A stretch of DNA of 64,000 nucleotides from an uncultured Gammaproteobacteria bacterium (lineage in GTDB: Bacteria > Patescibacteriota > Patescibacteriia > Magasanikbacterales > UBA922), in the NCBI GenBank assembly GCA_964418775.1, contig CAYQNA010000002.1, forward strand, positions 22,181-86,180, written 5' to 3'. This document shows positions 42,501-62,468 of this stretch, piece by piece. The first letter of the stretch is position 1. Each line of letters starts with the position of its first letter. The translations under genes and the position numbers were made by a program. Below the pieces are notes generated by a model that was given only the letters and a program-made list of their open reading frames with translations, did not search any database and had not been told where the DNA came from.

Positions 42501-43397
42501 AGTCACCTTAACATCCTTGCTGGCAGCGCGGAGACTAACTTTCAACATTTTGTTGAAAGCAGTACCATCGGCCAAACCACCGGCTGGCTGTACTGGCGTG
42601 TCAGCCGAGAGGCTAACCGACAATGCGCCACCAGTTGCTGGAGTAGTAACTGTAGAACCAGAGCGCTGTGAAGGGTTAGCCGACACAGTAGCTGGAGTTA
42701 CAGTAGTACTATCCATTGAAACAGCCGAGAAGGTAGCCTCGGATACAGTGCGAACATCCTTCGAGAGGTGTGCTGGCAAAGTACCGTCAACTTTCTTCAA
42801 CATGCCATTCCAGACATAGTACACAGTGGCGTCGTTGGCTTTCTTTACCAACTGACCATCGTGCAACTTTGTCAATTCACCACTAGCCGATGAAAGGTTG
42901 GCAAACCACTGGTCAGACCAGTCGGATACCATCTTTTCCCAACCAGCACCATAGGTAGCAGTAAGAACGCTGCCGTCAGTTACCTTTACCTTCATGTTGC
43001 CTGGAGCCACGGCCCAGATTGTTGGGCTAAGTGGAGTCTTGAGAAGACGAGAACCTGGGCGGAAGTTTACACCACCGGCCAAATCATAAGCGTCCAAACA
43101 AGAAGATGGGATTTCTTTAACCTGTACGTTAGCAAAGCTACCGTACCAGCTTTCGAAAACCAACGATGTTGGGAAGTACAAGCGCTTCATGTCGCTTGTC
43201 AACAAGTACACAGCAGTTGTTGCTGGGTTGCTCTTTATTGTTGGAACCTTGAAAAGGTCACCAGCAACGAGCTCAGGGCAGGAAGCTGCAGCCACGCCAG
43301 CTGGAACAAAGGCCGAAAGACCTACGCTCCAGACCATGGTCATACCGACCACAGACATGGTGAAAAGCTTCTTGCCGAACTTTTTAAATTCGTGCAT
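39537..43397 (-). CDS. Giant secreted surface protein (S-layer-like), 1286 aa, Thr/Ser/Gly/Asn/Val-rich beta-repeat architecture
   Basis: Signal peptide MHEFKKFGKK...VPAGVAAA|S; no Cys after the N-terminus; strong codon bias (ggt/gct/gtt/aag/cca); monocistronic with its own terminator. Confidence 0.6.
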   Translation of the reverse strand: MHEFKKFGKKLFTMSVVGMTMVWSVGLSAFVPAGVAAASCPELVAGDLFKVPTIKSNPATTAVYLLTSDMKRLYFPTSLVFESWYGSFANVQVKEIPSSCLDAYDLAGGVNFRPGSRLLKTPLSPTIWAVAPGNMKVKVTDGSVLTATYGAGWEKMVSDWSDQWFANLSSASGELTKLHDGQLVKKANDATVYYVWNGMLKKVDGTLPAHLSKDVRTVSEATFSAVSMDSTTVTPATVSANPSQRSGSTVTTPATGGALSVSLSADTPVQPAGGLADGTAFNKMLKVSLRAASKDVKVTGLTITRNGLINNTYVTGVSVWNSAGYRKGNVMTSFNSSNQVTVGFGSDPILVAAGSTEVVTVAFNLSSDAGSGSVGASIADKAHIMTDASSVEGSFPVAGNIMSVVDGGNSLSSFTVTSTAVGGNSASGDAANVSVGDVKEIGKFRFAETSGRNNLAVNGIVFFLEGNARDKDFTNFEVLGQDNTVLGKTEYAGNRYVTVKFTSPYIVPMSQNRIVTLRAKVSDGSGNYLRAKIQNDFDVMVEDNALHYQLLPSSFVATGAADGYFKVREGSLTLSKSQASKSGNVSAGSTDVELASFDVTAVGEDLEIQKIGVGITTSGPTMALTGNLRLVADNGDTLAQFAASSASDALYAGGSQRNLSQYWTIPSGQTKKLYVRGDINSNATSTGYLVSVGNFYARRVSSQTYAENLPSSSNVGTSGNTVTVQASNLTVSKDTSVGSGTVSAGRTGVVLAQFVVQAGSAEGVRLTNVSVSSTGDALIVNGGVKNLKLMMGTSTASLTQVGATISAPATSSNAFSIDNTTVGSVPANALKVVQIVGDVSSAVSSGSYVWGLSSFTYIGLSTNNPQTGDPVLGQTMTVGAANVIISAINDTTTVSKLYTPSTAPVQLGKWKVEAQNEDVTLNKITFLVSRPDGSTKTEASEFGTLSLYDADAMSASLDESPYASGNVRFEKSNMLTIKANTTKYLVLMGQITGSGVMSPATTSAFFIAPTSTTNFEMLRSSGGTVENTMLDFGASGQTYNATHATTTFYLFHNAAPKIVSETLANGTALSKLTQSQIFRFTVTNQGDRPMKMSTTTINVQVSGLLASGATSGTGTIYGFELHDAEGAGFNSQTLATSSLANNTNSSGGVTGSACIAGGIGATASDATGACANSVTSSLNLVFGVDSDSQSLFEDIQIAPGASRTFVLTANTNNIAAGRTSYPSTVTVSASLAGSRGYVSGNATHEANWADGVIQYFYTPVNGSINTTAYSASDSYPVNGPSLSLAI

Positions 43398-43409
43398 AAA
43401 TAATGTTCT

Positions 43410-43443
43410 TGACTGAGAAAAATGATTTTCTCAAGTCAGGTTA
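43410..43443 (-). promoter_or_regulatory. Stable hairpin in the 5' UTR about 13 nt upstream of the surface-protein start codon
   Basis: cttgactgagaaaa-atga-ttttctcaagtcag, 12-13 bp stem. Confidence 0.45.
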
Positions 43444-43531
43444 TTTAAGGACTGCTTGGCTACCGGGGATTCCGGCATCGACCTTGAGGCTAGCAGTTTC
43501 CCTGATTACTCAGGGGCACCATATACCGTAT

Positions 43532-43570
43532 GGCTATCAACCCTGTACCAAGTACAGAACTGATAGCCGC
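43532..43570. promoter_or_regulatory. Nested palindrome: candidate operator or activator site upstream of the surface-protein gene
   Basis: GGCTATCA-acc-CTGTAC-caa-GTACAG-aac-TGATAGCC, outer 8-bp and inner 6-bp inverted repeats. Confidence 0.4.
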
Positions 43571-43576
43571 ACGGTA

Positions 43577-44827
43577 TTATTTTTTTGTGGAGGTTGACGC
43601 AGTCACAGTTGAGCTGGCACTAACCACAATTGGTAGATTTTTGGTTTCAACCAGAATTTGTTGTGTCTCACCCGCGGTTTGATTCAAATCCTTGAGCTTG
43701 CTTACAGCTTCGCGCAAATGGCCACCGTCAATTGTTTTTTGAATATCACCAACCGAAGCTTGCAAGGCTACAGTCTTTTGCTCGACCGCTTGAATAACAC
43801 TCGCCGGTACTATAGTAGCCGCAGCACCAGACGAAACTGTTACAGTTGTGCTTGCACTCGCTGTAGTGGTGCTAACGCCCATAGTAGATGTAGCTGGAGT
43901 TGAACTTGCAATACGGATTTCAACCAACTCAGTGGTAGAAGTAGCTTGCTGTTTGATGTTCTTAACTGCCTGTTCCAAACCAGATGTTGTTTCCGCCAAT
44001 TGGAATAACTTAGTATTTACCAAAATCGCTACAGTGGCACTGTTTGGAGACTCAGGTGAAGTTTTTTCTTGTGCTGTTACCACAGCCTCTACAGTTGTCA
44101 GAGTACTTGCATTCACTGATTTAACAGTATCAACTACGGTTTTAGTTAACTCAGTATCAACACTATTGGCAGCTGGCACAGTTTCCTGCAAACTCTTTAC
44201 AATTTCCGTGGCATTTTTATTTACATCAGTTACAATGGCAATCGCCGCTGGTAATTCGGCCTTAGAAACAGCTTGAACCTGAGTGTTTACAGCCTCACTT
44301 GCAGTTTTAACTGCTTCGGCTACATCTTTGGCCGCGACGTTCAAATCATTAACCGCTTTGGTGCGCACCGCACTGTCGTCCGACGTGGTACGCTCAGCCA
44401 CCGCACGCTTAATATCTTCGGTACGATTCTTAGCCAAACTCAAATGCAATTGTGCTTTTTCACTATCAGACGCAACCAGGCTCTTTACCGCGACTTCGGT
44501 ATTTTGAGCCGCGCGCTTTACAGACCACAAACGGTCTCCAGGCAAACTATTAAACGAGGCGCTCACACTGGCAATCCAACCACCAGTGGTCAAAACTGCC
44601 ACCAATAAACCAGCCAAAACCGGCTTAGCCAAACGCCAGGCACCAGCATTGCCAAAAATATATTTAACTTCTTCAGTGCGCGCAGACCAGGCTACTTTCT
44701 CGGGTACAACAACTGTGTTACCAATCTGGCTCATCAAACGTGCACGATTTTTTTGTGCCCATGCCAAATCAGGCTGAATGGTTTCAGCCTTTTGTAATTC
44801 GCGTAATTTGGCACGCATGGTTTGCAT
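43577..44827 (-). CDS. Anti-sigma factor-like membrane protein (single TM, coiled-coil Ala/Thr/Val-rich extracytoplasmic domain, DUF5667-like)
   Basis: N-terminal cytoplasmic region, TM LAGLLVAVLTTGGWIA, long repetitive extracellular part; start 2 nt after the ECF sigma stop. Confidence 0.55.
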   Translation of the reverse strand: MQTMRAKLRELQKAETIQPDLAWAQKNRARLMSQIGNTVVVPEKVAWSARTEEVKYIFGNAGAWRLAKPVLAGLLVAVLTTGGWIASVSASFNSLPGDRLWSVKRAAQNTEVAVKSLVASDSEKAQLHLSLAKNRTEDIKRAVAERTTSDDSAVRTKAVNDLNVAAKDVAEAVKTASEAVNTQVQAVSKAELPAAIAIVTDVNKNATEIVKSLQETVPAANSVDTELTKTVVDTVKSVNASTLTTVEAVVTAQEKTSPESPNSATVAILVNTKLFQLAETTSGLEQAVKNIKQQATSTTELVEIRIASSTPATSTMGVSTTTASASTTVTVSSGAAATIVPASVIQAVEQKTVALQASVGDIQKTIDGGHLREAVSKLKDLNQTAGETQQILVETKNLPIVVSASSTVTASTSTKK

Positions 44828-44829
44828 AA

Positions 44830-45396
44830 TTACGAATTCTTTTTTTCAAGTTCATCCAGACGTTCTTTGGCGAGTTTAAGCGCCCGGTGCAGTGTAACCC
44901 GCACGTTGGTCTGGGTTTTTTCTAAAATTTGAGCAATTTCACCGACTGACAAGTCATCCACGTAGCGAAGCAGCAAAATTTCTTGATACTCACGCTTAAG
45001 TTGACTAATAACCCGCAGAATCGGCTGGGCATCGGCCCGGCTCTCGGCGGCAGCAAATTGTTTATCTACTGCGCCGATATTTTCCGCACTTTCCAGTGGC
45101 AGATTAGTATTATGCGCCTTGGCTCGATAAAAATCGACCAAACAATTGCGCGCAATCCTATACACCAGCCCGCTAAAGCTTTGGACTTCGTCAGGTTTGT
45201 GCTCCACAAGGTAATGCCACGTTTTAAGGAACACTGTGCTCGTAATATCCTCAGCTTCTTCCTTGTTGCCCACCTTAAAGTAGACAAAGCGGTAGATTTT
45301 CGCCAAGTACAGGTCATACAAAGCCCCAAAAGCCTGGGGGTCGCGACGGGTAATGACCTGATAGACCAGTTTTTTTTCACTAAAAAGATGTCGCAT
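44830..45396 (-). CDS. RNA polymerase ECF-type sigma-70 family factor
   Basis: Region 2 (FLKTWHYL, LVYRIARN) and region 4 (LSVGEIAQILEKTQTNVRVTLHRAL) motifs; 188 aa. Confidence 0.8.
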   Translation of the reverse strand: MRHLFSEKKLVYQVITRRDPQAFGALYDLYLAKIYRFVYFKVGNKEEAEDITSTVFLKTWHYLVEHKPDEVQSFSGLVYRIARNCLVDFYRAKAHNTNLPLESAENIGAVDKQFAAAESRADAQPILRVISQLKREYQEILLLRYVDDLSVGEIAQILEKTQTNVRVTLHRALKLAKERLDELEKKNS

Positions 45397-45449
45397 AGTA
45401 GAAGACGGCGTTCAGGCGAAAGTGTTACACCTGGGCCATCAGACGTCAA

Positions 45450-45478
45450 AAGTAGGGCCACTATAGCAGAGTAGAGCC
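45450..45478 (-). promoter_or_regulatory. Candidate sigma70 promoter (TTGCTT-17-TATAGT) for the ECF sigma operon
   Basis: Minus-strand reading TTGCTTttttggctctactctgcTATAGT. Confidence 0.35.
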
Positions 45479-45497
45479 AAAAAAGCAAGTAAATCGC

Positions 45498-45526
45498 TTG
45501 ACTTTTTGGCAAATTTAGGGTATATT
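45498..45526 (+). promoter_or_regulatory. Candidate sigma70 promoter (TTGACT-17-TATATT) for the HTH gene
   Basis: TTGACT 45498-45503, 17-nt spacer, TATATT 45521-45526; the track's TTG 'start' at 45506 lies inside it. Confidence 0.4.
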
Positions 45527-45541
45527 TGTATATACTTGTGT

Positions 45542-45874
45542 ATGGAAAGCACTCCAAATAATCAAAACCAAGAGCTAGAAACCAGTCACAAAGAGGTCAT
45601 CCGGGTCTCGATTTCCGAGGCTGCCCGCCTCTTTGGGGTCAACCCTCAAACCATCCGTCGAGCCATTACTAACCAGGAAATCGCCTACGTTGTTGTGGCT
45701 GGGCGGTACAAATTGAACTTCGAGAGCCTAGTTAAGTGGTCCCAACGCAAAACCACGGTCCGCAACAAATCCAACCAAAAAGGCATTGGCCAGTACGTGG
45801 GCCAGTGGCGGATCTCCAATACCCTGTATTCCCCTAGCCCCAAACTAGTCAAAAAGGAAGACGAGGGTGTATAA
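45542..45874 (+). CDS. Small helix-turn-helix DNA-binding protein (excisionase/MerR-like HTH)
   Basis: ISEAARLFGVNPQTIRRAITNQEIAYVVV; ATG at 45542 chosen over the TTG at 45506. Confidence 0.6.
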   Translation: MESTPNNQNQELETSHKEVIRVSISEAARLFGVNPQTIRRAITNQEIAYVVVAGRYKLNFESLVKWSQRKTTVRNKSNQKGIGQYVGQWRISNTLYSPSPKLVKKEDEGV

Positions 45875-47732
45875 TGGCTTCATGAGATACGTGGCCAAAC
45901 ACCTCACGCGACACCATTTATTCCACGCCCCGCACCGGTGGTTTTTTGCGCTTCTGCTCTCCCCTATTCACGCGGCCGAGCTGCATTACCAAAAACGCTA
46001 CCACTTACAGTTTGCGCATGCACGCAAACTTTTTTTATTTGACTTAAGTTTAATTGCGCTCATTGTCGGGCTCGCAGGCTTGACTGCGTATTGGTTCTGG
46101 TATGACCCAACAATCACCGAACAAATTGCATTAAATGTGCGCGCCAACACTGAAACCAACAGTGACGAAGCCGGTCGTATCCGCAGTGGTGAAAGAATTA
46201 CGTTTGCCATCAATTATCAAAACAACAGTGACCAAGAATTAAACGCCACTGAGTTGCGTGTGCGTTTACCCCAGCATTTTATTATACAAAACACCGCTGG
46301 CGCAAATTTCAACACGAGCACACAAACATTTTTCATTGGCCGTGTGTTGCGTAACACCAATAACACCGTGTACGCCACTGGTATATTTTACGGCACGCCA
46401 AGCACAGACGAACACGTGATTGCCGAGTTGCACTACACCCCAAGTTTACGTGCACAAACCGAAAGCAAGTTAGCCGCGCTCATTACCAATTTGCGCGACT
46501 CTGTGTTACAAACAAGCGTTGAATTACCGGCACGTTTACCGGCACGCAGCAACACCAAAACTGTTTTAACATTGTATAATTCACACAGTTTTGATTTGCC
46601 GGAAATTTTTGTGCCATTTGCGACTGGTTCAATTTCAGTCTCAGGCGCCCGCAGCGCATTTGGCACAATTACAGCCGATGGTTGGCGCTTACCAGGACTT
46701 AAACCAAATGAAAAAGCCTATCTTGACCTAAGCATAAACACCAATATTTCCGGGCCAATGAGCACTGCCTCGCTGCGTGTAACGCCATACATTTTCCCCA
46801 ATGGCGTAAGTATTGCACAGCAAACTTTGGAAAAAAATTGGACTGTAGCGCGCCCCGAAATTAGTGTGAATAGTAGCTGGGAAAATAAAACTGCAGCTGC
46901 GGGTAGTAGTCAAAAATTAACTGTGACGCTCCGCAATTTTGGAACTGAATTAATTCAAAATCTAGCACTCACAATTCCACTTGGGGCGAATGTTGACGCA
47001 ACGCGTTGGAGTGCGGCAAACAACGGACGCGTCGCCAATGGCGCAGCTACAATTACACGTGCGCACGATGCGCGTTTAAATGAACTTCAACCAGGCCAAG
47101 AAATTGTTTTTAATTTTTCTGTGCCAATTAAAAATTTCCCAATTGGTGCAGCCAATGCAAAAGTTTCACTACCACTTCGTTTGCACGCGCAGATTGCGGG
47201 CATCACAAGTGAATTTGACAATGAGACAGCTACACCTGAATTATCACTCGGCACTGCACTTCGTGTGTCTGGTGAAGCGCGATATTACACGGCCGAGGGT
47301 GATCAATTAGGTCGCGGACCACTACCGCCCCAGGTTGGTAAACAAACCAAATACGCCGTACTACTACACGTGGTTAACTCCGTTGCCGATGCAGAAAATG
47401 TACGCTTAACCGCAACACTACCAAACGGAATCGAGTGGACAGGAAAAACCAGCGTGAGCCGCGGGCAAGAAATTTCGTATGATGCAGTCACGCGACGTTT
47501 GAGTTGGAGTACGCGCACATTCCCGGCATTATCAGAATTAAGCGTGTTTGTGGAAGTTGGTTTTACACCAACCGAATCACAGCGGGGACAAACCGTACCA
47601 TTACTGCAAAACATTATTGTCGAGGGAACCGATGCCACCCTGGGTGACGCATTGCGTGCTAGTGCGGCCACACTTACGAGTGCACTCAACGCCGATACCC
47701 TTGCCCAATCCGCTAGTACCGCGGTGCGTTAA
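45867..47732 (+). CDS. Membrane-anchored protein with repeated DUF11/CARDB-like beta domains; function unknown
   Basis: One N-terminal TM, then about 4 repeats of about 110 aa (NxSD...L.N..L...LP pattern); GTG start overlapping the HTH gene by 8 nt (an alternative ATG lies at 45882). Confidence 0.5.
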   Translation: MYNGFMRYVAKHLTRHHLFHAPHRWFFALLLSPIHAAELHYQKRYHLQFAHARKLFLFDLSLIALIVGLAGLTAYWFWYDPTITEQIALNVRANTETNSDEAGRIRSGERITFAINYQNNSDQELNATELRVRLPQHFIIQNTAGANFNTSTQTFFIGRVLRNTNNTVYATGIFYGTPSTDEHVIAELHYTPSLRAQTESKLAALITNLRDSVLQTSVELPARLPARSNTKTVLTLYNSHSFDLPEIFVPFATGSISVSGARSAFGTITADGWRLPGLKPNEKAYLDLSINTNISGPMSTASLRVTPYIFPNGVSIAQQTLEKNWTVARPEISVNSSWENKTAAAGSSQKLTVTLRNFGTELIQNLALTIPLGANVDATRWSAANNGRVANGAATITRAHDARLNELQPGQEIVFNFSVPIKNFPIGAANAKVSLPLRLHAQIAGITSEFDNETATPELSLGTALRVSGEARYYTAEGDQLGRGPLPPQVGKQTKYAVLLHVVNSVADAENVRLTATLPNGIEWTGKTSVSRGQEISYDAVTRRLSWSTRTFPALSELSVFVEVGFTPTESQRGQTVPLLQNIIVEGTDATLGDALRASAATLTSALNADTLAQSASTAVR

Positions 47733-47734: not shown

Positions 47735-47763
47735 TTGACAAGAATAACAAACTCGGCGATACT
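47735..47763 (+). promoter_or_regulatory. Candidate sigma70 promoter (TTGACA-17-GATACT) for the Cys-rich lipoprotein gene
   Basis: TTGACA 47735-47740; 17-nt spacer; GATACT 47758-47763; a 10-bp inverted repeat (acttcagctt/aagctgaagt, 47806-47853) follows in the leader. Confidence 0.4.
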
Positions 47764-47913
47764 CAGGCTTCGCTCTTTTACAATCCAGAGGTTTGGGAAT
47801 TTTTAGCTAAACTTCAGCTTGGCGTTGTGTGTCACATTACCCTAAGCTGAAGTTGAGTTAAATTTCCCAAAAAGGTAAACCCAAAAAGTCCGCGCAGGAC
47901 GCCAAGGCGAGAA

Positions 47914-49992
47914 ATGAAATACATGACCTTGTGTCTAGTTGCAGCCGTGACGAGCTGCGGCTTTAACTTCTCCCTGGATGGGAAGTGTTTCGAGGGAGAG
48001 ACCTACATCACTAACCCCAACTGCCCGCCGCCCGATGGCGCGGACAGCACGGACAGCGTTGACGGTCTCGATGCAATTGACAGTGTCGGCACTACCGGCA
48101 TCGACACGGTCGACGGCATGGACGGGATCGCTGCAGTCGTGGACGGTGTCGCCGGTGCGTACAGCACCGACGCCACAGACTCAACCGATACCACCGACGG
48201 CACGTCTGACGGGACGGATGGAACCGATGCCACCGATGGCACGGAACCGACTGACTCCGAGGATGGGTCAGATAGCACTGATGCTACTGATGGCACAGTG
48301 GTACTAACCTGTGTTGTGGATACGGACTGCATCGACGACGGCAACCCGTGCACGACAACCAAGTGCGACCCGAATGGCGAGTGCGTGCACCCGCCGAATT
48401 CGGAGTTGTGCGACGATGGTAATGCGTGTACGGCCGGCGACGTTTGTCAGGCCGGTGAGTGTACGGGCACGAGCATCACGTGTGATGACGCTAACCCCTG
48501 CACCACCGACACGTGCACGTCGCCGAGTGGCTGCGTGTTCGTATTCAACACAGCGACGTGCGATGACGGCAACCCGTGCAGCGTTAGTGATGTTTGCAAT
48601 TCTGGCACGTGTCAGAGCGGCAACAACATGTGCGCGTGCAAAACGGACACCGACTGCGTGCCCCACAACGACGACAACCTGTGCAATGGCCAGCTCCATT
48701 GCCTGGTGTCCGGTGGTGTGGGCAACTGCGTGCCGGACGAATCCACGGTCGTCGTGTGCAACACGAATCAGAACACGGACTGCCTTACAGCGGTCTGTGT
48801 GCCGGCCACAGGTGAATGCGCGCTTCAATCCACGCACGAGCAGGAAGCATGCTCGGACGATGGCGATGCGTGCACGATCCTCGAGACGTGCCAGAACGGC
48901 CAGTGCTTAGGCAAACCGCGGGTCTGCGACGATGACGACCTCTGTACGGGGACGGAATCGTGCGATCCAACGAGCGGTTGTGTTCCGGGTACGCCAAAGG
49001 TGTGTAATGACGGGGAGGCTTGCAACGGCCTCGAAACCTGCATCACCATCTACGGCGGCTGCATCCCGGGCATACCCAAGAACTGCAGTGACAGCGATCC
49101 CTGCACGCTCGATTCGTGTACGTCAGGTTCGGGCAACTGCGTCCACGATGTCGGGGCCCTTGACTGTGATGATACCAATCCCTGCACGTTCGATCTGTGC
49201 GTGCCAGTGGTTGGCTGTCTGAACCAGGGGGGGCTCCAGCTCGAGGACATTGCGTGCAACGACGGCAACGCCTGCACTACTGTCGACGCGTGCAACAGCA
49301 CGGGGCAGTGTGTGGGCAATGAACCGGTCGTGTGCACGGCCATGGACCAGTGCCACGATGCGGGTACATGTGACGTGGCGACGGGCGAGTGTTCGCAGCC
49401 GACGGTGAAAAACAGCACGCCCTGCAACGACGGGACGCTGTGCACCACCGGTGACGTTTGTGTGGAAGGTACGTGTGTGGGTAACGAACTTCCACCCTGC
49501 GTACCTGATGCTTGCCACACCAAAGGTTTCTGCAATCCAGAGGATGGCCAGTGTTACCAGGAAGATGCGGACCTCGTACAGTGCCCGACTGACAACGTGC
49601 CCTGCACGTATGACAGTTGGTGCGACCCCCTGGTGGGTTGCTATCACCTGGACATTGGTCGTTTGCCAAATTCCTACGGCAACTGCGGCGTTGACTCTAC
49701 TCTGACGTCTGGCAACCTAGACTTTGACGAATTTCCAGACTACGCTGACCAGGATGCAGATGCGGACGGAATCTGCGACCCCGGTGTATTCTGGGGTGGA
49801 CAGAACTGCACATATCTCCCCAATGACAAGCGGGACAATGCGTCCCGGGTTTATAACCCGGACCAATCTGACCAGGATGGCGATGGTCTCGGGGACGTCA
49901 TTGATCCTGACGCTGATGGGAGTGGGTGCTACGATGCCTCGTTCCCCATCATTCCGGCCGGGGCCTGCGTGGATCTCCCGGTCTCACCATAA
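47914..49992 (+). CDS. Lipoprotein with an acidic Thr/Asp-rich linker, about 14 Dictyostelium-type (CTDC) Cys-rich repeats and C-terminal thrombospondin type-3 Ca-binding repeats
   Basis: Lipobox LVAAVTSC; linker DSTDTTDGTSDGTDGTDATDGTEPTDSEDGSDSTDATDGT; repeats CDDGNPCTTTKCDPNGEC / CDDGNACTAGDVC / CDDANPCTTDTC...; TSP3 segment DQDADADGICD...NPDQSDQDGDGLGDVIDPDADGSGC; GC elevated over flanks. Confidence 0.75.
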   Translation: MKYMTLCLVAAVTSCGFNFSLDGKCFEGETYITNPNCPPPDGADSTDSVDGLDAIDSVGTTGIDTVDGMDGIAAVVDGVAGAYSTDATDSTDTTDGTSDGTDGTDATDGTEPTDSEDGSDSTDATDGTVVLTCVVDTDCIDDGNPCTTTKCDPNGECVHPPNSELCDDGNACTAGDVCQAGECTGTSITCDDANPCTTDTCTSPSGCVFVFNTATCDDGNPCSVSDVCNSGTCQSGNNMCACKTDTDCVPHNDDNLCNGQLHCLVSGGVGNCVPDESTVVVCNTNQNTDCLTAVCVPATGECALQSTHEQEACSDDGDACTILETCQNGQCLGKPRVCDDDDLCTGTESCDPTSGCVPGTPKVCNDGEACNGLETCITIYGGCIPGIPKNCSDSDPCTLDSCTSGSGNCVHDVGALDCDDTNPCTFDLCVPVVGCLNQGGLQLEDIACNDGNACTTVDACNSTGQCVGNEPVVCTAMDQCHDAGTCDVATGECSQPTVKNSTPCNDGTLCTTGDVCVEGTCVGNELPPCVPDACHTKGFCNPEDGQCYQEDADLVQCPTDNVPCTYDSWCDPLVGCYHLDIGRLPNSYGNCGVDSTLTSGNLDFDEFPDYADQDADADGICDPGVFWGGQNCTYLPNDKRDNASRVYNPDQSDQDGDGLGDVIDPDADGSGCYDASFPIIPAGACVDLPVSP

Positions 49993-50008
49993 CCTTTAAC
50001 CTCTGGGG

Positions 50009-50041
50009 CGGGCTGTAAGTCACTTGCAGCCCGGCGCCCTT
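50009..50041 (+). terminator. GC-rich hairpin plus U-run; likely terminator of the lipoprotein gene
   Basis: cgggctg-taagtcacttg-cagcccg followed by gcgcccTTTT. Confidence 0.4.
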
Positions 50042-50073
50042 TTGACCCCCTGCCTAGGGGTTTAGAAGAGCCT

Positions 50074-50101
50074 AAAAAACCGCTTAAATAAGCGGTTTTT
50101 T
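50074..50101. terminator. Rho-independent terminator (A-tract/hairpin/T-tract; bidirectional-looking)
   Basis: aaaaaCCGCTT-aaat-AAGCGGttttt. Confidence 0.6.
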
Positions 50102-50128
50102 ATTTACATAAGTTATCCCCCTCCCCTA

Positions 50129-50184: not shown

Positions 50185-51357
50185 ATGCGTATTGCGATGA
50201 TCGGACAAAAAGGTATGCCTGCCACCTACGGCGGGGTGGAGCGCCATGTCCACGATTTAGCCGTGCGCCTGGTTAAAGCCGGTCATCAAGTGACTGCCTA
50301 TAGCCGCGCCTGGTACACCGGCGGCCACATGGGTCCAGTTGAGGGTGTTTCAATTGCCCTCTTGCCAAGTATCAAGAGCCAAAGCTTGGACACCATTACT
50401 CACACGGTCTTGGCCTCGTGGCACGCTGCACGCGCCAAGTTTGACGTGATCCACTATCACGGTGTTGGTCCATCTTTAATGGCTTGGATCCCTCGTTTGA
50501 TTTCACCTAAGACCAAAATTGTCTCCACATTCCACTCCATTGACCGCCACCAGCCAAAGTGGGGCCGCTTTGCCAAATTCATGTTGCGCCTCGGGGAATG
50601 GTGTGCTTGTCGCTTGGCTCATGACACAATTGTAGTGTCGAAAAGCTTGCAGAACTACTGCTTGAACGAATACAACCGCATTACCAATTACATTCCAAAC
50701 GGGACAGCATTGCGCCGTTCAGATAAAATCTCGACCGCGCCATTGGCTCAGTTTGGTTTGCAAGATGGCCAATACTTAGTCATGGTCGCACGTTTGATCC
50801 CAACCAAGGGTGCCCACTTACTTATCGATGCGTTTGAACAACTTAAGAACGGCAGCGCAGCAGCCAAAAATCTCAAACTTGCCATTGTTGGCGACACTGT
50901 AAATACGGACGCCTATGTGGCCCGCCTCAAAGCGCAAGCTGCTGGCAACTCAGACATTGTCTTCACTGGTTTCCAATCTGGTACCGAACTCCGTGCATTG
51001 TATGCGCACAGTTTTGCGGTGGTGCACCCATCGTTCAGCGAAGGCTTGCCAATTACAGTGCTCGAAGCCATGAGTTATGCCAAGCCAGTGCTTGTGTCTG
51101 ACATTGTGGAGCACCTGGAAGTCGTAACTGACCGCCGCGTCTTGTACGCGCAAAACTCAGTGCGCGACTTGGCCCGCTGCTTAAAAGAATTCCTTGAATT
51201 ACCGGCCGCAGAACGCGAAACTATCGGCATGCTTAATCGCCAAATGGTTCGCGCCAACTTTAGTTGGGAAACATTGGTACCACAAACAATTGCCGTGTAC
51301 CAAAACCCCGTGCCAGACTCAACAGTGGCCCGCAAAGAAATTTTGGCCACGACCTAA
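50185..51357 (+). CDS. Glycosyltransferase family 4
   Basis: MRIAMIGQKGMPATYGGVERHV N-terminus; FSEGLPITVLEAMSYAKPVLVSD. Confidence 0.8.
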   Translation: MRIAMIGQKGMPATYGGVERHVHDLAVRLVKAGHQVTAYSRAWYTGGHMGPVEGVSIALLPSIKSQSLDTITHTVLASWHAARAKFDVIHYHGVGPSLMAWIPRLISPKTKIVSTFHSIDRHQPKWGRFAKFMLRLGEWCACRLAHDTIVVSKSLQNYCLNEYNRITNYIPNGTALRRSDKISTAPLAQFGLQDGQYLVMVARLIPTKGAHLLIDAFEQLKNGSAAAKNLKLAIVGDTVNTDAYVARLKAQAAGNSDIVFTGFQSGTELRALYAHSFAVVHPSFSEGLPITVLEAMSYAKPVLVSDIVEHLEVVTDRRVLYAQNSVRDLARCLKEFLELPAAERETIGMLNRQMVRANFSWETLVPQTIAVYQNPVPDSTVARKEILATT

Positions 51358-57451: not shown

Positions 57452-59194
57452 CTAGTTCGTCTCCCCCCACCAGTTGGTCCCGTTGGCCAGCTCGTTGTAG
57501 TCAACCTCGACCGGCATCGTGACGGTCGTCCCGTCCGGGAAGACGAGCTTCATCGTCACGCCGCCGAGCACGAGCCAGTCCGTCGGGCTGGTGTTGAAGC
57601 CCGTGAGCCACGTCATGATGTTGTACTTGCCGTTGATCGGCCGCAGGAGCTTGCCGTTGACCTTGCACCGAAGCCGAGGCTTGGTGGCAGTCGCGGGCGG
57701 GAGCTGGCCGGCGGTGAGCGACTTGCTGTACACCATCTTGACGATGTCACCCGACGTCGGGATGTTCTGGCTGATCTGCGGGTTGTACTCGTCGAACTCG
57801 ATGATCGTCGAGCCCGCCGAGTTTGTGCAGCCGACGTGGAGCTGGGAGATCTCCGCGACGGAGGGGAGGAGGGACCGGAGGATCGACCACTCGGCGAAGT
57901 ACGTAGCGCCCGTGGTGACGGGCGGGATGGTGGTGTGCTCGCAGAGGCCGGTCTGGCCGTTGCAGCTGTCCGCCGTCCCGCCGTCGCCGTCGTCGCAGTT
58001 CTTCGCCGCGTTGACGCACCCCGTAGCCGCGACGCACGTGTCCGTCGAGCAGGCGTCGCCATCGTCGCAGGCGCCGTGGTTCGGGACGTGGGCGCAGCCC
58101 TGGCCGGGGTAGTAGGTGTCGACCGTGCAGGCGACGCCGTCGTTGCACGACGGCTCCGCGTTGCACTGACCCTCGTAGCACCCGTAGGGGCAGACGATCC
58201 CGGCCGAGCCGAGCTGGACGCACTGGTGAGCCTGGCACTGGTAGACGAAGCTGACGAGCGAGTTGCCGTTGCAGGCGTCGGGGACCTCGCAGTCCGTGTC
58301 GACGTCGCACTCCGGGTTCGGCGTGAACACGCAGCTCCCCGTCGCCGGGTTGCAGCTGTCCGTCGTCGTCGAGTCCCCGTCGTTGCACGTCTTGTGCGTG
58401 AACAGGCACCCGCCGATCGCCTCGTTGTACTCGTCCGTCGAGCAGGCGTCGCCATCGTCGCAGTCCGGCTCCTGCACGCAGAGCCCCTCGGAGCAGCCGA
58501 AGCCGCACGCCGGGCCAGCCGCCTTCGGGTCCTCGGCGACGCACGTTCCCGCGATGCAGGCGTAGAGCCGGAACATCGGGGTCGTGCCGTCGCAGAAGAG
58601 GTCCGTCGGACAGCCAGCGTCGGAGACGCACTCGGTCGGCACCGCGGGCGGCGCGTAGCAGATGACCAGCGTCGAGTCCGGATCGATCTCCACCGCGTCG
58701 AGCTTCCCGTTCTTCGGGTTGTTGTCGACACCGCTGAAGAAGACCGTACCGCCGAAGGCGCACTGCTTGAGCGTGGCCGCGACGGCGCCGTTGATGACGG
58801 TGTCGCCCTGCGGTCCCTGCTCGCCGGTCTCACCCTTCTCTCCGTCGGTCCCCGGATCGCCCTTGTCACCCTTCCCGCCGGGCTTGCCCGGCGCTCCGTC
58901 TTCGCCGTCCTTCGCGTCATCGATGCAGAGGCCCTGAGGACCACAGATGAAGCCGGAGGGACAGACGCTCTCGGAGTTGCAGAGGGTGAGGTCGATGCCG
59001 TCCGTCGCGTCGGTGGTGTCGGTCGCGTCGTCCCCCTCGGTGCCGTCCGTGGCATCCGTGGAGTCCGTCGTGTCGGTGTTGACCTGGGCGTCGCCCTTGT
59101 CATCGCCGCCGAGCGCACAGCCGGAGAAGCTTCCCACGATGACGCTCGTGAGCAGGCGGGCCGTGGCCAGCTTCAGGTTCTTCAGGTTCTTCAT
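57452..59194 (-). CDS. Lipoprotein with acidic Thr/Asp linker, collagen-like Gly-X-Y segment, Dictyostelium-type Cys-rich repeats and a C-terminal beta-rich domain (GC3 about 90%)
   Basis: Start trimmed from the track's TTG (59272) to ATG at 59192-59194 (MKNLKNLK..., GGAG 5 nt upstream); lipobox-like FSGC; TDSTDATDGTEGDD; GEDGAPGKPGGKGDKGDPGTDGEKGETGEQGPQGD (12 triplets); CDDGDACSTDEY, CNDGDSTTTDSC, CNDGVACTVDTY, CDDGDACSTDTC, CDDGDGGTADSC. Confidence 0.7.
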   Translation of the reverse strand: MKNLKNLKLATARLLTSVIVGSFSGCALGGDDKGDAQVNTDTTDSTDATDGTEGDDATDTTDATDGIDLTLCNSESVCPSGFICGPQGLCIDDAKDGEDGAPGKPGGKGDKGDPGTDGEKGETGEQGPQGDTVINGAVAATLKQCAFGGTVFFSGVDNNPKNGKLDAVEIDPDSTLVICYAPPAVPTECVSDAGCPTDLFCDGTTPMFRLYACIAGTCVAEDPKAAGPACGFGCSEGLCVQEPDCDDGDACSTDEYNEAIGGCLFTHKTCNDGDSTTTDSCNPATGSCVFTPNPECDVDTDCEVPDACNGNSLVSFVYQCQAHQCVQLGSAGIVCPYGCYEGQCNAEPSCNDGVACTVDTYYPGQGCAHVPNHGACDDGDACSTDTCVAATGCVNAAKNCDDGDGGTADSCNGQTGLCEHTTIPPVTTGATYFAEWSILRSLLPSVAEISQLHVGCTNSAGSTIIEFDEYNPQISQNIPTSGDIVKMVYSKSLTAGQLPPATATKPRLRCKVNGKLLRPINGKYNIMTWLTGFNTSPTDWLVLGGVTMKLVFPDGTTVTMPVEVDYNELANGTNWWGETN

Positions 59195-59340
59195 CTTCGC
59201 TCCAACTGCAGGCCGACTCTTGTGTGAGGCCCGCTTCTCGGTGTTGCGGCGAAGGTAGTGTCCCTCCGCCAAATTGCCACGCCATCCCGTTCCCCCGTTC
59301 TCCCCAGCTTGCGCCAGGGCGAGTTAACGGGACGGTATAG

Positions 59341-59390
59341 TGTGGACAAGAAAGAGTTTTGGCTAATCTAAGCCCTTTCTTATCCACACT
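59341..59390 (-). promoter_or_regulatory. Conserved leader element A: 13-bp inverted repeat (GTGGACAAGAAAG / CTTTCTTATCCAC) flanking the core TTTTGGCTAATCTAAGCC, in the 5' UTR of gene 57452..59194
   Basis: Core GGCTAATYTRAGCC also present at 60980-60993 (element B). Confidence 0.45.
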
Positions 59391-59445
59391 AAGGCGTGTA
59401 TTTATCTTGTCTTGGGTTGTAAGGAACCCTTTAATTTAACTTGAG

Positions 59446-59474
59446 AGTATACCACTTTTTGTGGGTTTTGTCAA
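59446..59474 (-). promoter_or_regulatory. sigma70 promoter TTGACA-17-TATACT (extended -10), near-identical in flanks to the promoter at 50129
   Basis: Minus strand: ctaTTGACAaaacccacaaaaagtggTATACTctc; shares CTATTGACAAAA and GGTATACTCTC with 50126-50161. Confidence 0.6.
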
Positions 59475-59704
59475 TAGACTTACCCACTCATCCACAAGCC
59501 AATTTTGACTTAGAGATGAGTGAGGGGAAGCGTTTGACTGCCACCCCCGCCGCTCCGATCGCTGTGCGACCGTCGAACGACGAGGGGAGTTCACGCTCCC
59601 CACACCTCCTTGTGCGCTGCCGGACAAATCCGGACCAGCGCGGCTTCCACCTGAACGCGACGTAAACGCCGCACTCTTAGACCCTGATGGAAAAGGGTCG
59701 CATA

Positions 59705-60688
59705 TCACCAGCCGACTTGGAGCCCGAGCTGGAGCCGGGGCAGGAACAGCCAGTCGGCCGTGTCGAAGGTGTCCCCCTTCTTGTAGGCCTGAACTCCGTA
59801 GAGCTCGACCCCGATCTCGAGGAACTCCTTCATCCAATCGGCCTTCGACCACCACAGCGGCCGGAAGTTGGCCCCGAGACCGAGCCCGTAGAGGAACTCG
59901 TCCGCGTGGTCAACGACCGCGTGGGAGGAGGTTCCCGACTTGAGAGCGAAGGACAAGTCCACCACCCCCAGCCAGGCCCCGATCTGAGCCCCAACGTCCC
60001 AACCGATCGCACGATTACCCGCTTCATTGTCCGCAGTGAGGTATCCGCTGACCCTGGCCACGAGCGAGTCGTTGTGCCAGCTGAAGGTGAGTCCCGTCGA
60101 GGAGATCATGTCGGCGCCGACGAAGTCGAGGCCCGTGCTGATCCGCGCCCCGAAGTGCGAGATGATCGAAACCGGCGCGGGCGAGCCAGCCGGTCCGGCG
60201 ATACCTTGCGGTCCCTGTCCTCCGGGCGCCCCAGCCTCGCCATTGCAGACGTAGTGCGGGTTACCATTCACATCGATCACGCTGATCCCGCCGGCGGGGC
60301 AATTCTCCCCCACCGGCTCCTCCGAGACGATGGGGGTGAAACCATCCATCCCGTCACGACCCTCCTTCGGCTTGGTGCTGCCATACTTACCGCAGACGAT
60401 GCGCTCACCCTTCTTGTTGACGCCCCAGTACCCGGGGCCCTTGGGCTTGCAGCAGAAGGCGTACGTATACGCCTTCGTCTCGCACTTGTCCTCACAGTCC
60501 GCACCAGCGCGGCACTGTTCACCGTCCTCCGGCGAGCTGCTGACCTTCCAGACGCACTTGCCGTCCTGGCAGTGTGCGTTCGGTCCGGCGCAGTCGTTGT
60601 CCGACTTACACTCAGACCTAGGCGGCTTGGCCGCCGCGACACCGGTGACGAGGAGGAACGCGAGCAAAAAGGAACCGAACCGATTCAT
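59705..60688 (-). CDS. Secreted Cys-rich protein with a short collagen-like segment and a C-terminal about 170-aa beta-barrel-like domain ending in Trp (OMP-like)
   Basis: Signal peptide MNRFGSFLLAFLLVTGVAAA; 14 Cys in the first 150 aa; GEAGAPGGQGPQGIAGPAGSP; C-terminal amphipathic beta-strand pattern ...LQLGLQVGW*; GC3 very high. Confidence 0.65.
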   Translation of the reverse strand: MNRFGSFLLAFLLVTGVAAAKPPRSECKSDNDCAGPNAHCQDGKCVWKVSSSPEDGEQCRAGADCEDKCETKAYTYAFCCKPKGPGYWGVNKKGERIVCGKYGSTKPKEGRDGMDGFTPIVSEEPVGENCPAGGISVIDVNGNPHYVCNGEAGAPGGQGPQGIAGPAGSPAPVSIISHFGARISTGLDFVGADMISSTGLTFSWHNDSLVARVSGYLTADNEAGNRAIGWDVGAQIGAWLGVVDLSFALKSGTSSHAVVDHADEFLYGLGLGANFRPLWWSKADWMKEFLEIGVELYGVQAYKKGDTFDTADWLFLPRLQLGLQVGW

Positions 60689-60915
60689 GATGCCCTCCTG
60701 GGCATGCCGGCCTAACGCGTCCCACCGCGCTGGTCAGCTCTTGTCTATGCTAGACCCTGAAAAGAACTTGCGCACCCAGGTGGGACCGGGCGCGACTTGA
60801 CCCTTAAGTTTCCTTAAGACGTTCGCCACAGGGGCGAGGTTGAAGCCCAGTAGGAACCAACCTCGTCTCTCTGGTTTAGGTCAACACTACTCCTAACTTA
60901 TTTAAATAACCAAAT

Positions 60916-60944
60916 ATCATATCAAAAAAAGACTATTTTGTCAA
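60916..60944 (-). promoter_or_regulatory. Candidate sigma70 promoter TTGACA-17-TATGAT for gene 59705..60688
   Basis: Minus strand: ctaTTGACAaaatagtctttttttgaTATGAT; same CTATTGACAAAA -35 context as the other two promoters. Confidence 0.45.
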
Positions 60945-60960
60945 TAGTCAAGCCAAGGCA

Positions 60961-60995: not shown

Positions 60996-60998
60996 TTA

Positions 60999-61072: not shown

Positions 61073-61172
61073 CCGCCCCCAACCCTCCCCACCCACCCGC
61101 CGAAGCGGATGGGCGCCCGTCCCTCCGCTGAGCGTTGCGCGACCCTAGGGGATCACCGCTCAGTGGGAGACA

Positions 61173-62468
61173 TCACGACGGCGGGCAGCCGTTCGGCTTC
61201 GCGCCCGGCGTGCCGTTGCACGCGTCGCACGCGTCACCGACGCCGTCGCCGTCGAAGTCGGCCTGCCCGACGTTCGGCGCCGCGGGGCAGTTGTCGCACG
61301 CGTTGCCGAAGCCGTCCTTGTCGCCGTCCGTCTGGTTGACGTTGGCGAGCCCCGGACAGTTGTCGAGCGCGTCCGGCACCTTGTCATCGTCGCCGTCGAG
61401 GGCGCAGATGCCCGGGGTCGGCGTGCTGCCGGTGACGTCCTGGAGGCAGAGCTCCGGCGGGCCGTCCTCGGTGCCGCACGACTTGCCCGTGTCGGTGCCG
61501 CACATCGGCTCGAGACCGCACTCCGTGCTCGCCGCGTCCGGCGTGCACGGCTCGCACGCCCCGTCGAGGCAGTACTCGCCCACGCCGCACTGCACGCCCA
61601 TCGGCGCCGCCCAGTGCTTGCACGACGTGCCGCTGCAGCCGTCGAGCGTGCAGAGGTTGCCGTCGTCGCAGGACTTCGCGGTGCCGACGCAAGCCCCGTT
61701 CGCGCACTTGTCCGAATCCGAGCAGAACTGCCCGTCGTCACACGCCACGCCGTCGGCCTTCTTCGGGTTCGTGCAGTCGCCCGTCGTGGGCTCGCACGTA
61801 CCCGGGAGGTGGCACTGGTCGAGGGCGGTGCAGGACTTGTCGGTGCCGGGGTCGCACTCACCCGCGGTGCACACGTCCCCGACCGTGCACTTGTCACCGT
61901 CGTCGCACGACGTGCCGTCGGCCGCGACCGGGTTCGAGCAGAGCCCGGTGGCCGGGTTGCACGTGCCCGCGACGTGGCAGTCGTCCTGCGCCGTGCACGT
62001 GACCGGGCTGGAACCCGAGCACATGCCCGCCTGGCAGGTGTCGACCGTCGTGCACATGCTGCCGTCGCTGCACGACGTGCCGTCACTGACCGGCGTGTGC
62101 CCGCACTTGTAGTTCTGACACGAGTCCGTGGTGCAGGGGTTCTTGTCGTCGCAGCCCCCCGCGTTCACGCACTGGATCTCCTCGGCGCAGTTCGTCCCGT
62201 TCTTGTCCTTCACGTAGGAGCAGAACCCCTTGGTGTCCCCCTCCTTCTTGAAGCACATGTACTCGTCGACGAGCGCGCACGGGTCCTCGTCGTGCGGGTT
62301 CCCGGTGCAGTCGGAGGGCATCGTGCACTCCGTGAGGTCGGCCTTGAGGACCTGCACCTTGTCGGCCTCCTTGACGGAGACCGGCGACCCCGTGGACGCC
62401 TGAGACGCACAGCCGAACACCGTCGCGACCACGAAGAACTTCGCGGCCCACTTCATGAGATTACGCAT
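61173..62468 (-). CDS. Lipoprotein with Dictyostelium-type Cys-rich repeats and C-terminal thrombospondin type-3 repeats (GC3 above 90%)
   Basis: Lipobox VATVFGC; CDDKNPCTTDSC, CSDGSMCTTVDTC, CDDGDKCTVGDVC, CDDGQFCSDSDKC, CDDGNLCTLDGC; TSP3 segment DGDDDKVPDALDNCPGLANVNQTDGDKDGFGNACDNCPAAPNVGQADFDGDGVGDACDAC. Confidence 0.75.
   Translation of the reverse strand: MRNLMKWAAKFFVVATVFGCASQASTGSPVSVKEADKVQVLKADLTECTMPSDCTGNPHDEDPCALVDEYMCFKKEGDTKGFCSYVKDKNGTNCAEEIQCVNAGGCDDKNPCTTDSCQNYKCGHTPVSDGTSCSDGSMCTTVDTCQAGMCSGSSPVTCTAQDDCHVAGTCNPATGLCSNPVAADGTSCDDGDKCTVGDVCTAGECDPGTDKSCTALDQCHLPGTCEPTTGDCTNPKKADGVACDDGQFCSDSDKCANGACVGTAKSCDDGNLCTLDGCSGTSCKHWAAPMGVQCGVGEYCLDGACEPCTPDAASTECGLEPMCGTDTGKSCGTEDGPPELCLQDVTGSTPTPGICALDGDDDKVPDALDNCPGLANVNQTDGDKDGFGNACDNCPAAPNVGQADFDGDGVGDACDACNGTPGAKPNGCPPS

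Follow-up and report, generated by a model that had tools for sequence, protein, structure and literature searches.

The 64,000-nt stretch of DNA analysed here (the window) carries a gene for a Cys-rich repeat lipoprotein at 47914 to 49992, referred to below as the target, and, further downstream, an island of three GC-rich genes (57452..59272, 59705..60688 and 61173..62468) that includes relatives of it. At a probability of about 0.62, we read the target as encoding a lipid-anchored, Ca2+-dependent surface protein, a function suggested by its architecture, that is resident in its genome, is of Myxococcota-type origin, and is losing its synonymous GC while its island paralogs keep theirs. Two paralogs ~7 kb apart in one genome show opposite behaviour, one shedding foreign GC and the other holding an equilibrium. 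This pairing of a decaying with a non-decaying paralog makes for an unusual element; the family itself is large, known, and functionally uncharacterised.

Architecture of the target protein

From its N- to its C-terminus, the protein consists of a lipoprotein signal peptide, a stalk of ~90 residues, 15 to 16 modules predicted to be stapled by disulfides (up to 37 disulfides), and a C-terminus resembling thrombospondin type-3 (TSP3) repeats (Table 1). The open reading frame (ORF), lipobox, acidic Thr/Asp linker, and Cys-rich repeats are as stated in a preliminary description of the gene, whose "about 14" repeats is a fair count for 15 regular modules and one irregular one. The signal peptide, MKYMTLCLVAAVTSC, matches a PS51257-type lipobox, with a charged n-region (K2), a hydrophobic h-region, and the lipidation Cys in place. 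Specifically, residues 5-15 (TLCLVAAVTSC) match the PROSITE-type lipoprotein pattern, taken as [LIVMFWSTAG](2)-[LIVMFYSTAGCQ]-[AGS]-C with the Cys within residues 15-35, and Cys15 is unchanged across the alignment of orthologs. Through this residue, the protein is presumably anchored to the cytoplasmic membrane of a cell that has no outer membrane; the part of the window ORFs scanned with Pfam included neither an lgt nor an lspA gene. The linker (residues 41-130, 90 residues) contains 28% D+E, 30% T+S, and 16% G, and zero K or R.

Residues 133-576 hold 67 Cys, whose C-x5-7-C-x5-6-C-x4-6-C spacing defines 15 regular units and one irregular CxC module. A loose pattern (C-x-[DNST]-x-C-[TSNHD]-x-C) recovers 14 units, and a stricter CxDxNxCT-type core only 6. 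The protein has 76 Cys in total, 74 of which lie beyond the lipidated one; as this number is even, all of these could be disulfide-bonded. Among the three closest orthologs of the target, no Cys varies, and the ratio of nonsynonymous to synonymous divergence (dN/dS) of the orthologs is ~0.13-0.17, which together indicate purifying selection. On the target, the Pfam family Dicty_CTDC (PF00526) scores 23.9 bits (E=3.7e-5), with 7 stretches at a lenient threshold, compared with a gathering score of 27 bits that the orthologs P0001 and P0002 pass (35.7 and 60.6 bits, respectively). In an AlphaFold2 (AF2) model built on 52 family members, residues 131-530 form a rod of beta-hairpin repeats with a confidence score (predicted local distance difference test, pLDDT) of ~90, while the linker, at pLDDT ~30, is read as disordered.

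The TSP3 repeats named in the preliminary description were supported by profiles, and not by searches with the single sequence. The Pfam model TSP_3 (PF02412, gathering score 25 bits) does not match the target even at E <= 10, be it the whole protein or its C-terminal 126 residues; NCBIfam gave no match on the target sequence either, and phmmer with this single sequence found no match in the PDB. In contrast, a profile of the three closest orthologs matches the type-3 repeats of COMP (3fby, E=3.5e-11) and thrombospondin-2 (4.7e-9). Three DxDxDG motifs start at residues 614, 653, and 664, within the C-terminal ~110 residues, and the segment can be aligned to the repeats that Pfam TSP_3 detects with significance in the island gene 61173..62468. 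The Cys pair of TSP3 repeats (D-N-C-P ... C-D) is absent, the target and its orthologs carrying DNAS/DNAP and GDVxD instead of DNCP and GDxCD. The C-terminus reads ...ACVDLPVSP, with no MYXO-CTERM.

The target is a vertically inherited resident of its locus

The gene fills the same slot in six related loci, with orthologs in five Patescibacteria contigs among neighbour genes resembling those of Magasanikbacteria, showing that it is a vertically inherited resident. The relative loci were found by exact-protein look-ups in Logan and NCBI assemblies, partly via a more conserved neighbour that encodes a DUF11 protein and whose family names point to Patescibacteria near Candidatus Magasanikbacteria. 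Scans of genome and metagenome contig collections with this neighbour returned no syntenic loci, and a look-up for the exact target protein in the public collection gave no match. The closest homologs, P0001 and P0002, are 54% and 51% identical to the target over its full length and lie in the same gene neighbourhood; all other homologs are at most 42% identical and partial. The orthologs are each other's best hits, and the slot itself (DUF11 gene, target, GT4 glycosyltransferase gene) is filled by an ortholog in every relative found. Gene order around it is conserved in L001, L002, L004, L005, L006, and L007, and runs sigma70, a gene for 416 aa, a gene for 1286 aa, HTH_17, DUF11, target, GT4, GHL15 (FG-GAP), GT4, GT4, Wzy_C.

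The orthologs come in two lengths. Long forms are found in the window locus (W; 692 aa), L001 (681 aa), L002 (683 aa), and L007 (623 aa), with a GC content at third codon positions (GC3) of 0.70, 0.67, 0.72, and 0.65, respectively. Short forms are found in the deeper relatives L004 (401 aa, GC3 0.59) and L006 (408 aa, GC3 0.55), and retain the N- and C-terminal signature motifs of the long forms. For the same genome pairs, dN is 0.39 for the target and 0.12-0.14 for the DUF11 gene, an approximately 3-fold difference, with protein identities of 55% and ~80%. The organism has been sampled independently, as window positions 58434-64000 are 100% identical to a contig from SRR12487046, where an island protein is found at 100% identity as well.

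Probable decay of the target's synonymous GC toward host composition

The target has a GC content of 0.595 and a GC3 of 0.698, whereas 41 host-like genes of the window average a GC3 of 0.451 (standard deviation 0.053; z=4.7) and the island genes reach 0.93 (57452..59272), 0.83 (59705..60688), and 0.96 (61173..62468). The composition of the target is therefore not that of the genome average, and lies between host and island, as had been described. The excess runs along the whole gene (0.58-0.78 in 50-codon blocks). The genes flanking the slot have a GC3 of 0.33-0.53, with a higher value, 0.56-0.65, for the small HTH_17 gene. Codon usage leans the same way, toward the island and the Myxococcota pattern: ACG, GGC, CCG, and GCG are raised, TGC is used at 0.72 and GAC at 0.61 (0.41 for both in the host), and the host-preferred GGT and CCA are still visible.

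Likelihood models were fitted on a rooted four-taxon tree of the long-form loci, restricted to synonymous sites where all four share the residue and pooling them into G/C-ending (S) and A/T-ending (W) states (n=249 sites). A stationary model reached a log-likelihood (lnL) of -610.29 with an equilibrium of 0.69. With the equilibrium fixed at the host value of 0.43 and the root left free, lnL rose to -606.55 for an equal number of parameters, and the root was placed at S=0.95. The fully free non-stationary model gave lnL -606.50, with an equilibrium of 0.47 and a root of 0.94, and stationary two-class mixtures brought no gain over the simple stationary model. In a parametric bootstrap, only 1.3% of 150 stationary simulations reached the observed difference (p ~0.013), which is typical under the decay model. 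Counting the patterns directly, 65 sites are SSSS, 101 carry a single W, and 7 are WWWW, so that A/T-ending codons are mostly lineage-specific novelties. A four-state fit of fourfold-degenerate sites placed the root at a GC of 0.96, and the DUF11 control gene fits stationarity at host composition. Polarised changes from G/C to A/T outnumber those from A/T to G/C in the target and not in the DUF11 gene; this three-taxon parsimony polarisation is biased toward G/C-to-A/T with a GC-rich, saturated outgroup, and served as supporting evidence only.

Decay from an island-like ancestor toward host composition is the better-supported reading of these results, and we hold it with moderate confidence. 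The earlier label "partly ameliorated" is supported by the same likelihood difference, bootstrap, and root estimate (~0.95). The target conforms to the amelioration model for genes gained by horizontal transfer (Lawrence and Ochman 1997, as cited in PMC12455944): its synonymous GC goes from donor-like to host-like by mostly lineage-specific G/C-to-A/T changes. Island gene 61173..62468 deviates from the model, keeping a GC3 of 0.87-0.96 down to protein identities of 53-75%.

A saturation test was rejected as proof of a stationary, gene-specific GC3. In this test, third-base identity at fourfold sites of conserved residues is what composition predicts for the target (0.31-0.35 vs 0.28-0.31), and not for the flanks. 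It conditions on the present composition, however, which may itself be inherited, and the likelihood models reversed its conclusion.

Several points weigh against our reading. Concerning the protein, neither Dicty_CTDC nor TSP_3 is above its Pfam threshold on the target sequence alone, and the AF2 model is uninformative over the C-terminal 110 residues. Concerning the decay, the model is crude (F81-type, with a single equilibrium shared by the lineages and constant rates), it draws on 249 sites in four taxa only, and the DUF11 control gene also has lineage-specific GC shifts. The decay fit moreover under-predicts the C/G differences at sites that are G/C in both sequences (~0.25, in a hand calculation with branch lengths and root frequencies of the four-state fit, vs 0.47 observed for W-L002), which hints at extra turnover under a GC-favouring force. 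Finally, the copies in the deep relatives L004 and L006 are short and close to host composition, so that a GC-rich ancestor of the long forms needs either long GC maintenance before the decay or re-seeding by a GC-rich paralog.

Island paralogs of the target

Judged from its sequence, 61173..62468 is a genuine paralog of the target with the same architecture. BLASTP aligns the two at 3e-24, with 45% identity over 151 aa, and, from the Cys modules through the TSP3 region, the island gene is collinear with the C-terminal half of the target and with the short orthologs (37-42% identity). Outside this collinear half, the repeats make positional homology among the four Cys-rich proteins unreliable. 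The homology thus extends far past the low-complexity linker. The match to 57452..59272 is weaker (9e-7; best segment 36% over 66 aa), although Pfam finds Dicty_CTDC (48.8 bits) along with Collagen in this protein. The kinship with the island genes claimed in the preliminary description therefore stands firmly for the first, less so for the second, and not for 59705..60688, with which the target has no significant BLASTP match. This last gene (59705-60688, minus strand, 327 aa, GC3 0.83) encodes a short Cys-rich N-terminus, a collagen-like GxY run, and the end ...LQLGLQVGW, and has no Pfam match.

The preliminary description had also pointed to a linker peptide, DSTDATDGT, shared with 57452..59272. 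The peptide is indeed present in both genes (48271-48297 and 59039-59065), with 19 of 27 nucleotides identical and all 8 differences at third codon positions. A residue-shuffle null puts such sharing at 5e-5, but ignores triplet periodicity. As both linkers are (T/S)-D-x triplet repeats, in which a coincidence of this kind is expected, we rejected the peptide as evidence of relationship.

The island slot is occupied in relatives too (L004, L006; L009, L010). Syntenic orthologs of 61173..62468 lie at L009:450-1748 (75% identity, GC3 0.94) and L010:81-1352 (53%, GC3 0.87); the L009 copy is flanked by orthologs of both neighbour genes, and conserved intergenic elements of the window recur in both loci. 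In L004 and L006, the position of 57452..59272, 3' of Wzy_C, is taken by genes of the collagen-like plus Dicty type (GC3 0.87 and 0.84, respectively). These two are ~30% identical to the window copy, with different C-terminal domains, and 80% identical to each other, with a synonymous divergence 2-3 times lower than that of their flanks. Intergenic GC in the island is only 0.53-0.55, with host-type promoters.

The island gene 61173..62468 sits at a GC-rich equilibrium, rather than being "not yet ameliorated". For the window, L009, and L010 copies, a stationary GC-rich equilibrium reaches lnL -228.29, compared with -244.50 for the host equilibrium at equal parameter numbers; this difference of 16 rejects decay toward host composition. 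Among fourfold site pairs of the window and L009, 42 are CC, 49 GG, and 46 CG, and only 12 are G/C-versus-A/T, with L010 behaving likewise. C and G are nearly randomised while GC stays at or above 0.9, and approximately one-third of the sites that are G/C in both sequences differ as C vs G. A force that separates G/C from A/T but not C from G speaks against selection for particular optimal codons, and in favour of either biased gene conversion or selection acting on GC content. Repeated import of GC-rich segments from outside donors was considered as well and found no database support, as neither the target (at most ~42%) nor the island paralog has a close external relative. Setting aside the syntenic orthologs (P0241, P0242, P0251), relatives of the paralog reach at most 56% identity over a third of the protein, or 66% over about a tenth.

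The preliminary description had read the intermediate composition of the target as consistent with an acquisition older than the island. This chronology fails: both slots are conserved in relatives, and 61173..62468 is at a GC-rich equilibrium. With syntenic island orthologs holding a GC3 of 0.87-0.96, GC3 is no usable age clock here. Target and island are both old in this clade, and differ in GC regime (decaying vs kept), not demonstrably in age. More generally, compositional islands cannot be read as recent arrivals, nor intermediate composition as age, without a phylogenetic test.

We tentatively suggest that, in this lineage, Myxococcota-derived Cys-rich surface genes have been held at a donor-like GC3 (0.87-0.96), over times that sufficed to nearly randomise C vs G at fourfold sites, by biased gene conversion at a recombination-prone surface-antigen locus, or by selection on GC content, and that the target has escaped this force and is now ameliorating. 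If true, the window would be a single-genome natural experiment on why some foreign genes never ameliorate. Identifying the GC-retaining force would bear on the debate between biased gene conversion and selection on GC in bacteria.

Two further observations concern the reach of the GC-rich composition. Genes adjoining the Cys-rich genes have a mildly raised GC3 throughout (Wzy_C at 55704-57110, minus strand, 0.60; GT4 at 50185-51357, plus strand, 0.57; host mean 0.45). In the host-like gene 62728-63912 (minus strand), the last 40 codons, on the island side (62728-62850), have a GC3 of 0.82 and the remainder 0.33-0.65, so that the GC-rich zone overshoots the gene boundary.

Origin of the family and likeness to known proteins

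Thousands of relatives of the target exist. In a survey of genomes representing one species each, the best 80 relatives all belong to Myxococcota/Myxococcales or to Deltaproteobacteria-type metagenome-assembled genomes (MAGs), largely from freshwater, with a mean locus GC of 0.66; these genomes often hold many paralogs each. The family is overwhelmingly found in Myxococcota, with the copies in the candidate phyla radiation (CPR) as outliers, and its repeat architecture bars a reliable alignment for a tree. This distribution suggests that the family came into CPR bacteria from GC-rich donors of the Myxococcota type, in which it is hugely expanded. A literature search on Dicty_CTDC or Cys-rich repeats in CPR/Patescibacteria, and on MtsC, found nothing relevant; one paper on horizontal gene transfer in Patescibacteria offered only background of a general kind.

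The Cys-rich repeat proteins of Myxococcota (Dicty_CTDC, often with MYXO-CTERM) have the same alternating modules as the target (CxDGNxCTxxDxCxxGxCxG / CxDxNPCTxDxCDPxxGC) and share its internal CxC module, at 33-47% identity over target residues 140-580, and some members contain TSP3 repeats as the target does. They are usually 1000-1200 aa long, are encoded in GC-rich genomes of diderms, and often carry MYXO-CTERM or lectin domains, whereas the target has 692 aa, a predicted lipobox anchor, a CPR genome of 45% GC, and N- and C-terminal motifs of its own. The NCBIfam model NF047638 (MtsC, a cell-cell cohesion MYXO-CTERM protein) does not match the target, and scores 48 bits on the island paralog against a cut-off of 350. 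With the type-3 repeats of thrombospondin and COMP (PF02412; PDB 3fby, 1yo8, 1ux6), the target has the DxDxDGxxDxxD motifs and the N-P-D-Q spacer in common. Unlike them, it has only ~2-3 degenerate repeats, DNA-S/P in place of DNC-P, and no C-terminal lectin-like globe.

The founding members of PF00526 are extracellular-matrix proteins of Dictyostelium with CTDC repeats, which are eukaryotic and secreted; the 24-residue four-Cys repeat motif is common to them and the target. Among solved structures, Foldseek places the AF2 model closest to the Cys-rich region of the Gal/GalNAc lectin heavy subunit of Entamoeba histolytica (PDB 9gjf and others; E ~4e-6, probability 0.96). Both proteins would be elongated, disulfide-rich stalks, going by the model in the case of the target; with a global TM-score of ~0.1 and an identity of 16-18%, the likeness of the modelled rod to the lectin would be a local resemblance of fold class and no evidence of homology.

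Another Cys-rich island was observed in the distant CPR genome L003 (GCA_016234725.1, labelled Candidatus Azambacteria), where positions 10001-20398 contain four Dicty_CTDC lipoprotein genes with a GC3 of 0.70-0.85, split by a small low-GC gene. The order of island, Wzy_C, and GT4 is that of the window, with Wzy_C and GT4 proteins only 33-34% identical to those of the window. The shared order reflects either a very old association or a recurrent integration site.

Proposed history and alternative explanations

Taken together, the history that we favour would begin with entry of the family from GC-rich Myxococcota-type donors. The ancestor of the long-form clade would have had an island-like synonymous GC of ~0.95, and all four sampled lineages would then have lost GC in the direction of the host, with ~35-55% of synonymous sites turned over, to arrive at a GC3 of 0.65-0.72. 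The island paralogs would be holding their GC-ending codons at equilibrium by a G/C-favouring force that the target escaped or lost.

A possible, if doubtful, variant is that the long, GC-rich form arose only in the ancestor of W, L001, L002, and L007, when a short, host-like copy was overwritten or extended by recombination with a GC-rich member of the island type or of foreign origin, and that decay followed. It corresponds to the suggestion in the preliminary description that the family expanded after entry or entered more than once. The deep relatives indeed have 401-408 aa, 26 Cys in the repeat region, and a GC3 of 0.55-0.59, compared with 623-692 aa and 0.65-0.72 in the long-form clade, whose inferred ancestor is at ~0.95 at synonymous sites. 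Among the 270 additional residues is the CxC module typical of Myxococcota members, and the hairpin in the 5' leader is likewise specific to the long-form clade. However, the terminal signature motifs are common to short and long forms and yet GC3-rich in the latter, which a simple internal insertion does not explain. A donor of high nucleotide identity was not found either: outside the ortholog group no protein relative exceeds 42%, and within the window the BLASTP matches are limited to 45% over 151 aa (61173..62468), 36% over 66 aa (57452..59272), and none (59705..60688). Deletion in two deep lineages would be an equally simple explanation for the two lengths.

As for the role of the protein, its architecture and genomic context suggest an elongated surface protein that acts in adhesion or as matrix in a Ca2+-dependent manner, plausibly making contact with a partner cell or with matrix; an adhesin role would be in keeping with this. 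Proteins with TSP3 or Cys-rich repeats classically serve in adhesion or as matrix. It seems rather unlikely to us that the target, instead of being a partner-cell adhesin, serves the envelope or matrix of its own cell as a structural or Ca2+-buffering part, or works as a decoy or shield. Such a role would fit the position of the gene inside an envelope-polysaccharide locus (GT2/GT4, Wzy_C, flippase, UDP-glucose dehydrogenase) and beside a DUF11 protein of the wall-associated type, as well as the lack in the target of a recognisable ligand-binding domain, such as the C-type lectin of some relatives. Against it stand not only the classical association of these repeats with adhesion or matrix, but also the nearest structural match, the Cys-rich region of an adhesin (E=4e-6), and the ~3 times faster evolution of the target relative to its DUF11 neighbour, which fits an interaction surface. 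In the favoured role, the target would add a conserved, lineage-specific candidate surface-contact protein to ultra-small, probably episymbiotic bacteria with a largely unknown attachment machinery, and the finding points to Myxococcota as the source of such machinery. One may speculate further that these proteins mimic or bind homologous surface proteins of a Myxococcota host cell.

We consider it unlikely that the intermediate GC3 is a stable, gene-specific equilibrium, maintained by a weaker version of the G/C-favouring force of the island. That such a force demonstrably acts on 61173..62468 speaks for it, as do the narrow range of the four lineages (0.65-0.72), the randomisation of C vs G at sites that are G/C in both sequences (CG/(S-S) = 0.47 for W-L002), and the fourfold third-base identity at the level expected from composition. 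The last of these is non-discriminating, however, as the composition may be an inherited memory. The stationary model is worse than decay (a difference in Akaike information criterion of 7.5), mixtures do not rescue it, the bootstrap rejects it at p ~0.013, and the likelihood profile disfavours an equilibrium of 0.7 or above.

A recent horizontal arrival, or an assembly chimera of GC-rich Myxococcota DNA on a CPR contig, would account for the atypical composition (z=4.7) and for closest non-orthologous relatives that are all GC-rich Myxococcota MAGs, but is effectively refuted by the same slot, promoter, and terminator in five independent assemblies from different samples, by the joint divergence of target and flanks, by an independent assembly that is 100% identical over the adjacent island region, and by the absence of any external relative above 42% identity.

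Transcription unit and gene neighbourhood

The target forms a single-gene transcription unit, as predicted from its own promoter, structured leader, and terminators (Table 1). The claim that it has its own promoter and terminator stands on comparative grounds, as both are kept in six orthologous loci. Across these, the -35 hexamer is invariant and the -10 hexamer is conserved with variation, and the conserved promoter of the next gene comes after the target terminators. Both terminator hairpins (50005-50102) were overlooked by a consensus scan. The stem-loop in the 5' leader has compensatory changes at 3 of its 28 pairs (4 sequences) and is missing from L004 and L006, the loci with short forms; this leader has no match in Rfam.

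Table 1. Features of the target gene and of its island relatives (window coordinates unless a locus is given)
Feature	Coordinates	Strand	Basis
Sigma-70-type promoter TTGACA-17 nt-GATACT, 3 nt past the stop codon of the upstream DUF11 gene	47735..47763	+	Scan score 10/12
Extended stem-loop in the 5' leader, long-form clade only	47794..47872	+	RNAalifold, 28 pairs, -34.8 kcal/mol
Shine-Dalgarno-like AAGGCGAG, 6-9 nt 5' of the ATG	47904..47911	+	Read from sequence; AAGG(A) motif kept in orthologs
Coding sequence, Cys-rich repeat lipoprotein, 692 aa	47914..49992	+	ORF, ATG start; syntenic orthologs in 5 other contigs
Predicted lipoprotein signal peptide with lipobox VTS|C15	47914..47958	+	PROSITE-type pattern; Cys15 invariant; AF2 helix at residues 2-13
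N-terminal motif GFxFxxxGxCFxGExY...C, specific to the ortholog group of the target	47959..48033	+	Alignment of long forms, sequences of short forms
Acidic Thr/Asp/Gly-rich stalk, predicted disordered, with DSTDATDGT at 48271-48297	48034..48303	+	Composition; pLDDT ~30
Rod: 15 regular four-Cys modules of the Dicty_CTDC type and an irregular CxC module (48631-48819)	48304..49653	+	Cys spacing, Pfam, AF2, family consensus
Degenerate TSP type-3-like segment, predicted to bind Ca2+, with three DxDxDG motifs at 49753, 49870, and 49903	49705..49938	+	Ortholog profile, paralog alignment
GC-rich hairpin followed by TTTT, first terminator-like element	50005..50039	+	-24.6 kcal/mol, z=-2.45; conserved with variation in orthologous loci
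A6-stem-T6 intrinsic terminator AAAAAACCGCTTA...TAAGCGGTTTTTT	50073..50102	+	-15.1 kcal/mol, z=-4.9; nearly invariant in six loci
More distant paralog, collagen-like GxY run and Dicty modules, probable ATG 59194; GC3 0.93	57452..59272	-	BLASTP, Pfam
Closest island paralog, 431 aa, with lipobox, Dicty modules, and canonical TSP_3; GC3 0.96	61173..62468	-	BLASTP, collinear alignment, Pfam
Collagen-like GxY and Dicty genes downstream of Wzy_C	window 57452-59272, L004:19950-21705, L006:20300-21697	-	GC3 0.84-0.93

Positions 1-57110 of the window are mostly one large envelope-polysaccharide locus, with many GT2/GT4 genes, two Wzy_C genes, and genes for a flippase, a UDP-glucose dehydrogenase, sugar epimerases, methyltransferases, and an S8 peptidase. 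Directly upstream of the target, a module kept in all relatives (39537-47732) comprises an ECF-type (extracytoplasmic function) sigma70 gene (44830-45396), the genes for 416 aa and 1286 aa, HTH_17 (45542-45874), and the gene for the DUF11 protein of 621 aa; the 1286-aa product has no Pfam match. This sigma70-DUF11 module may be a regulatory and functional unit for surface proteins.

In the island, 59705-60688 is preceded by a leader of ~230 nt (~60689-60930, minus strand), which is ~90% identical between the window and L009, above the conservation of synonymous sites. This leader is preceded by a host-type promoter, TTGACA-N17-TGATATGAT, and has no match in Rfam; it could be an uncharacterised cis-regulatory RNA.

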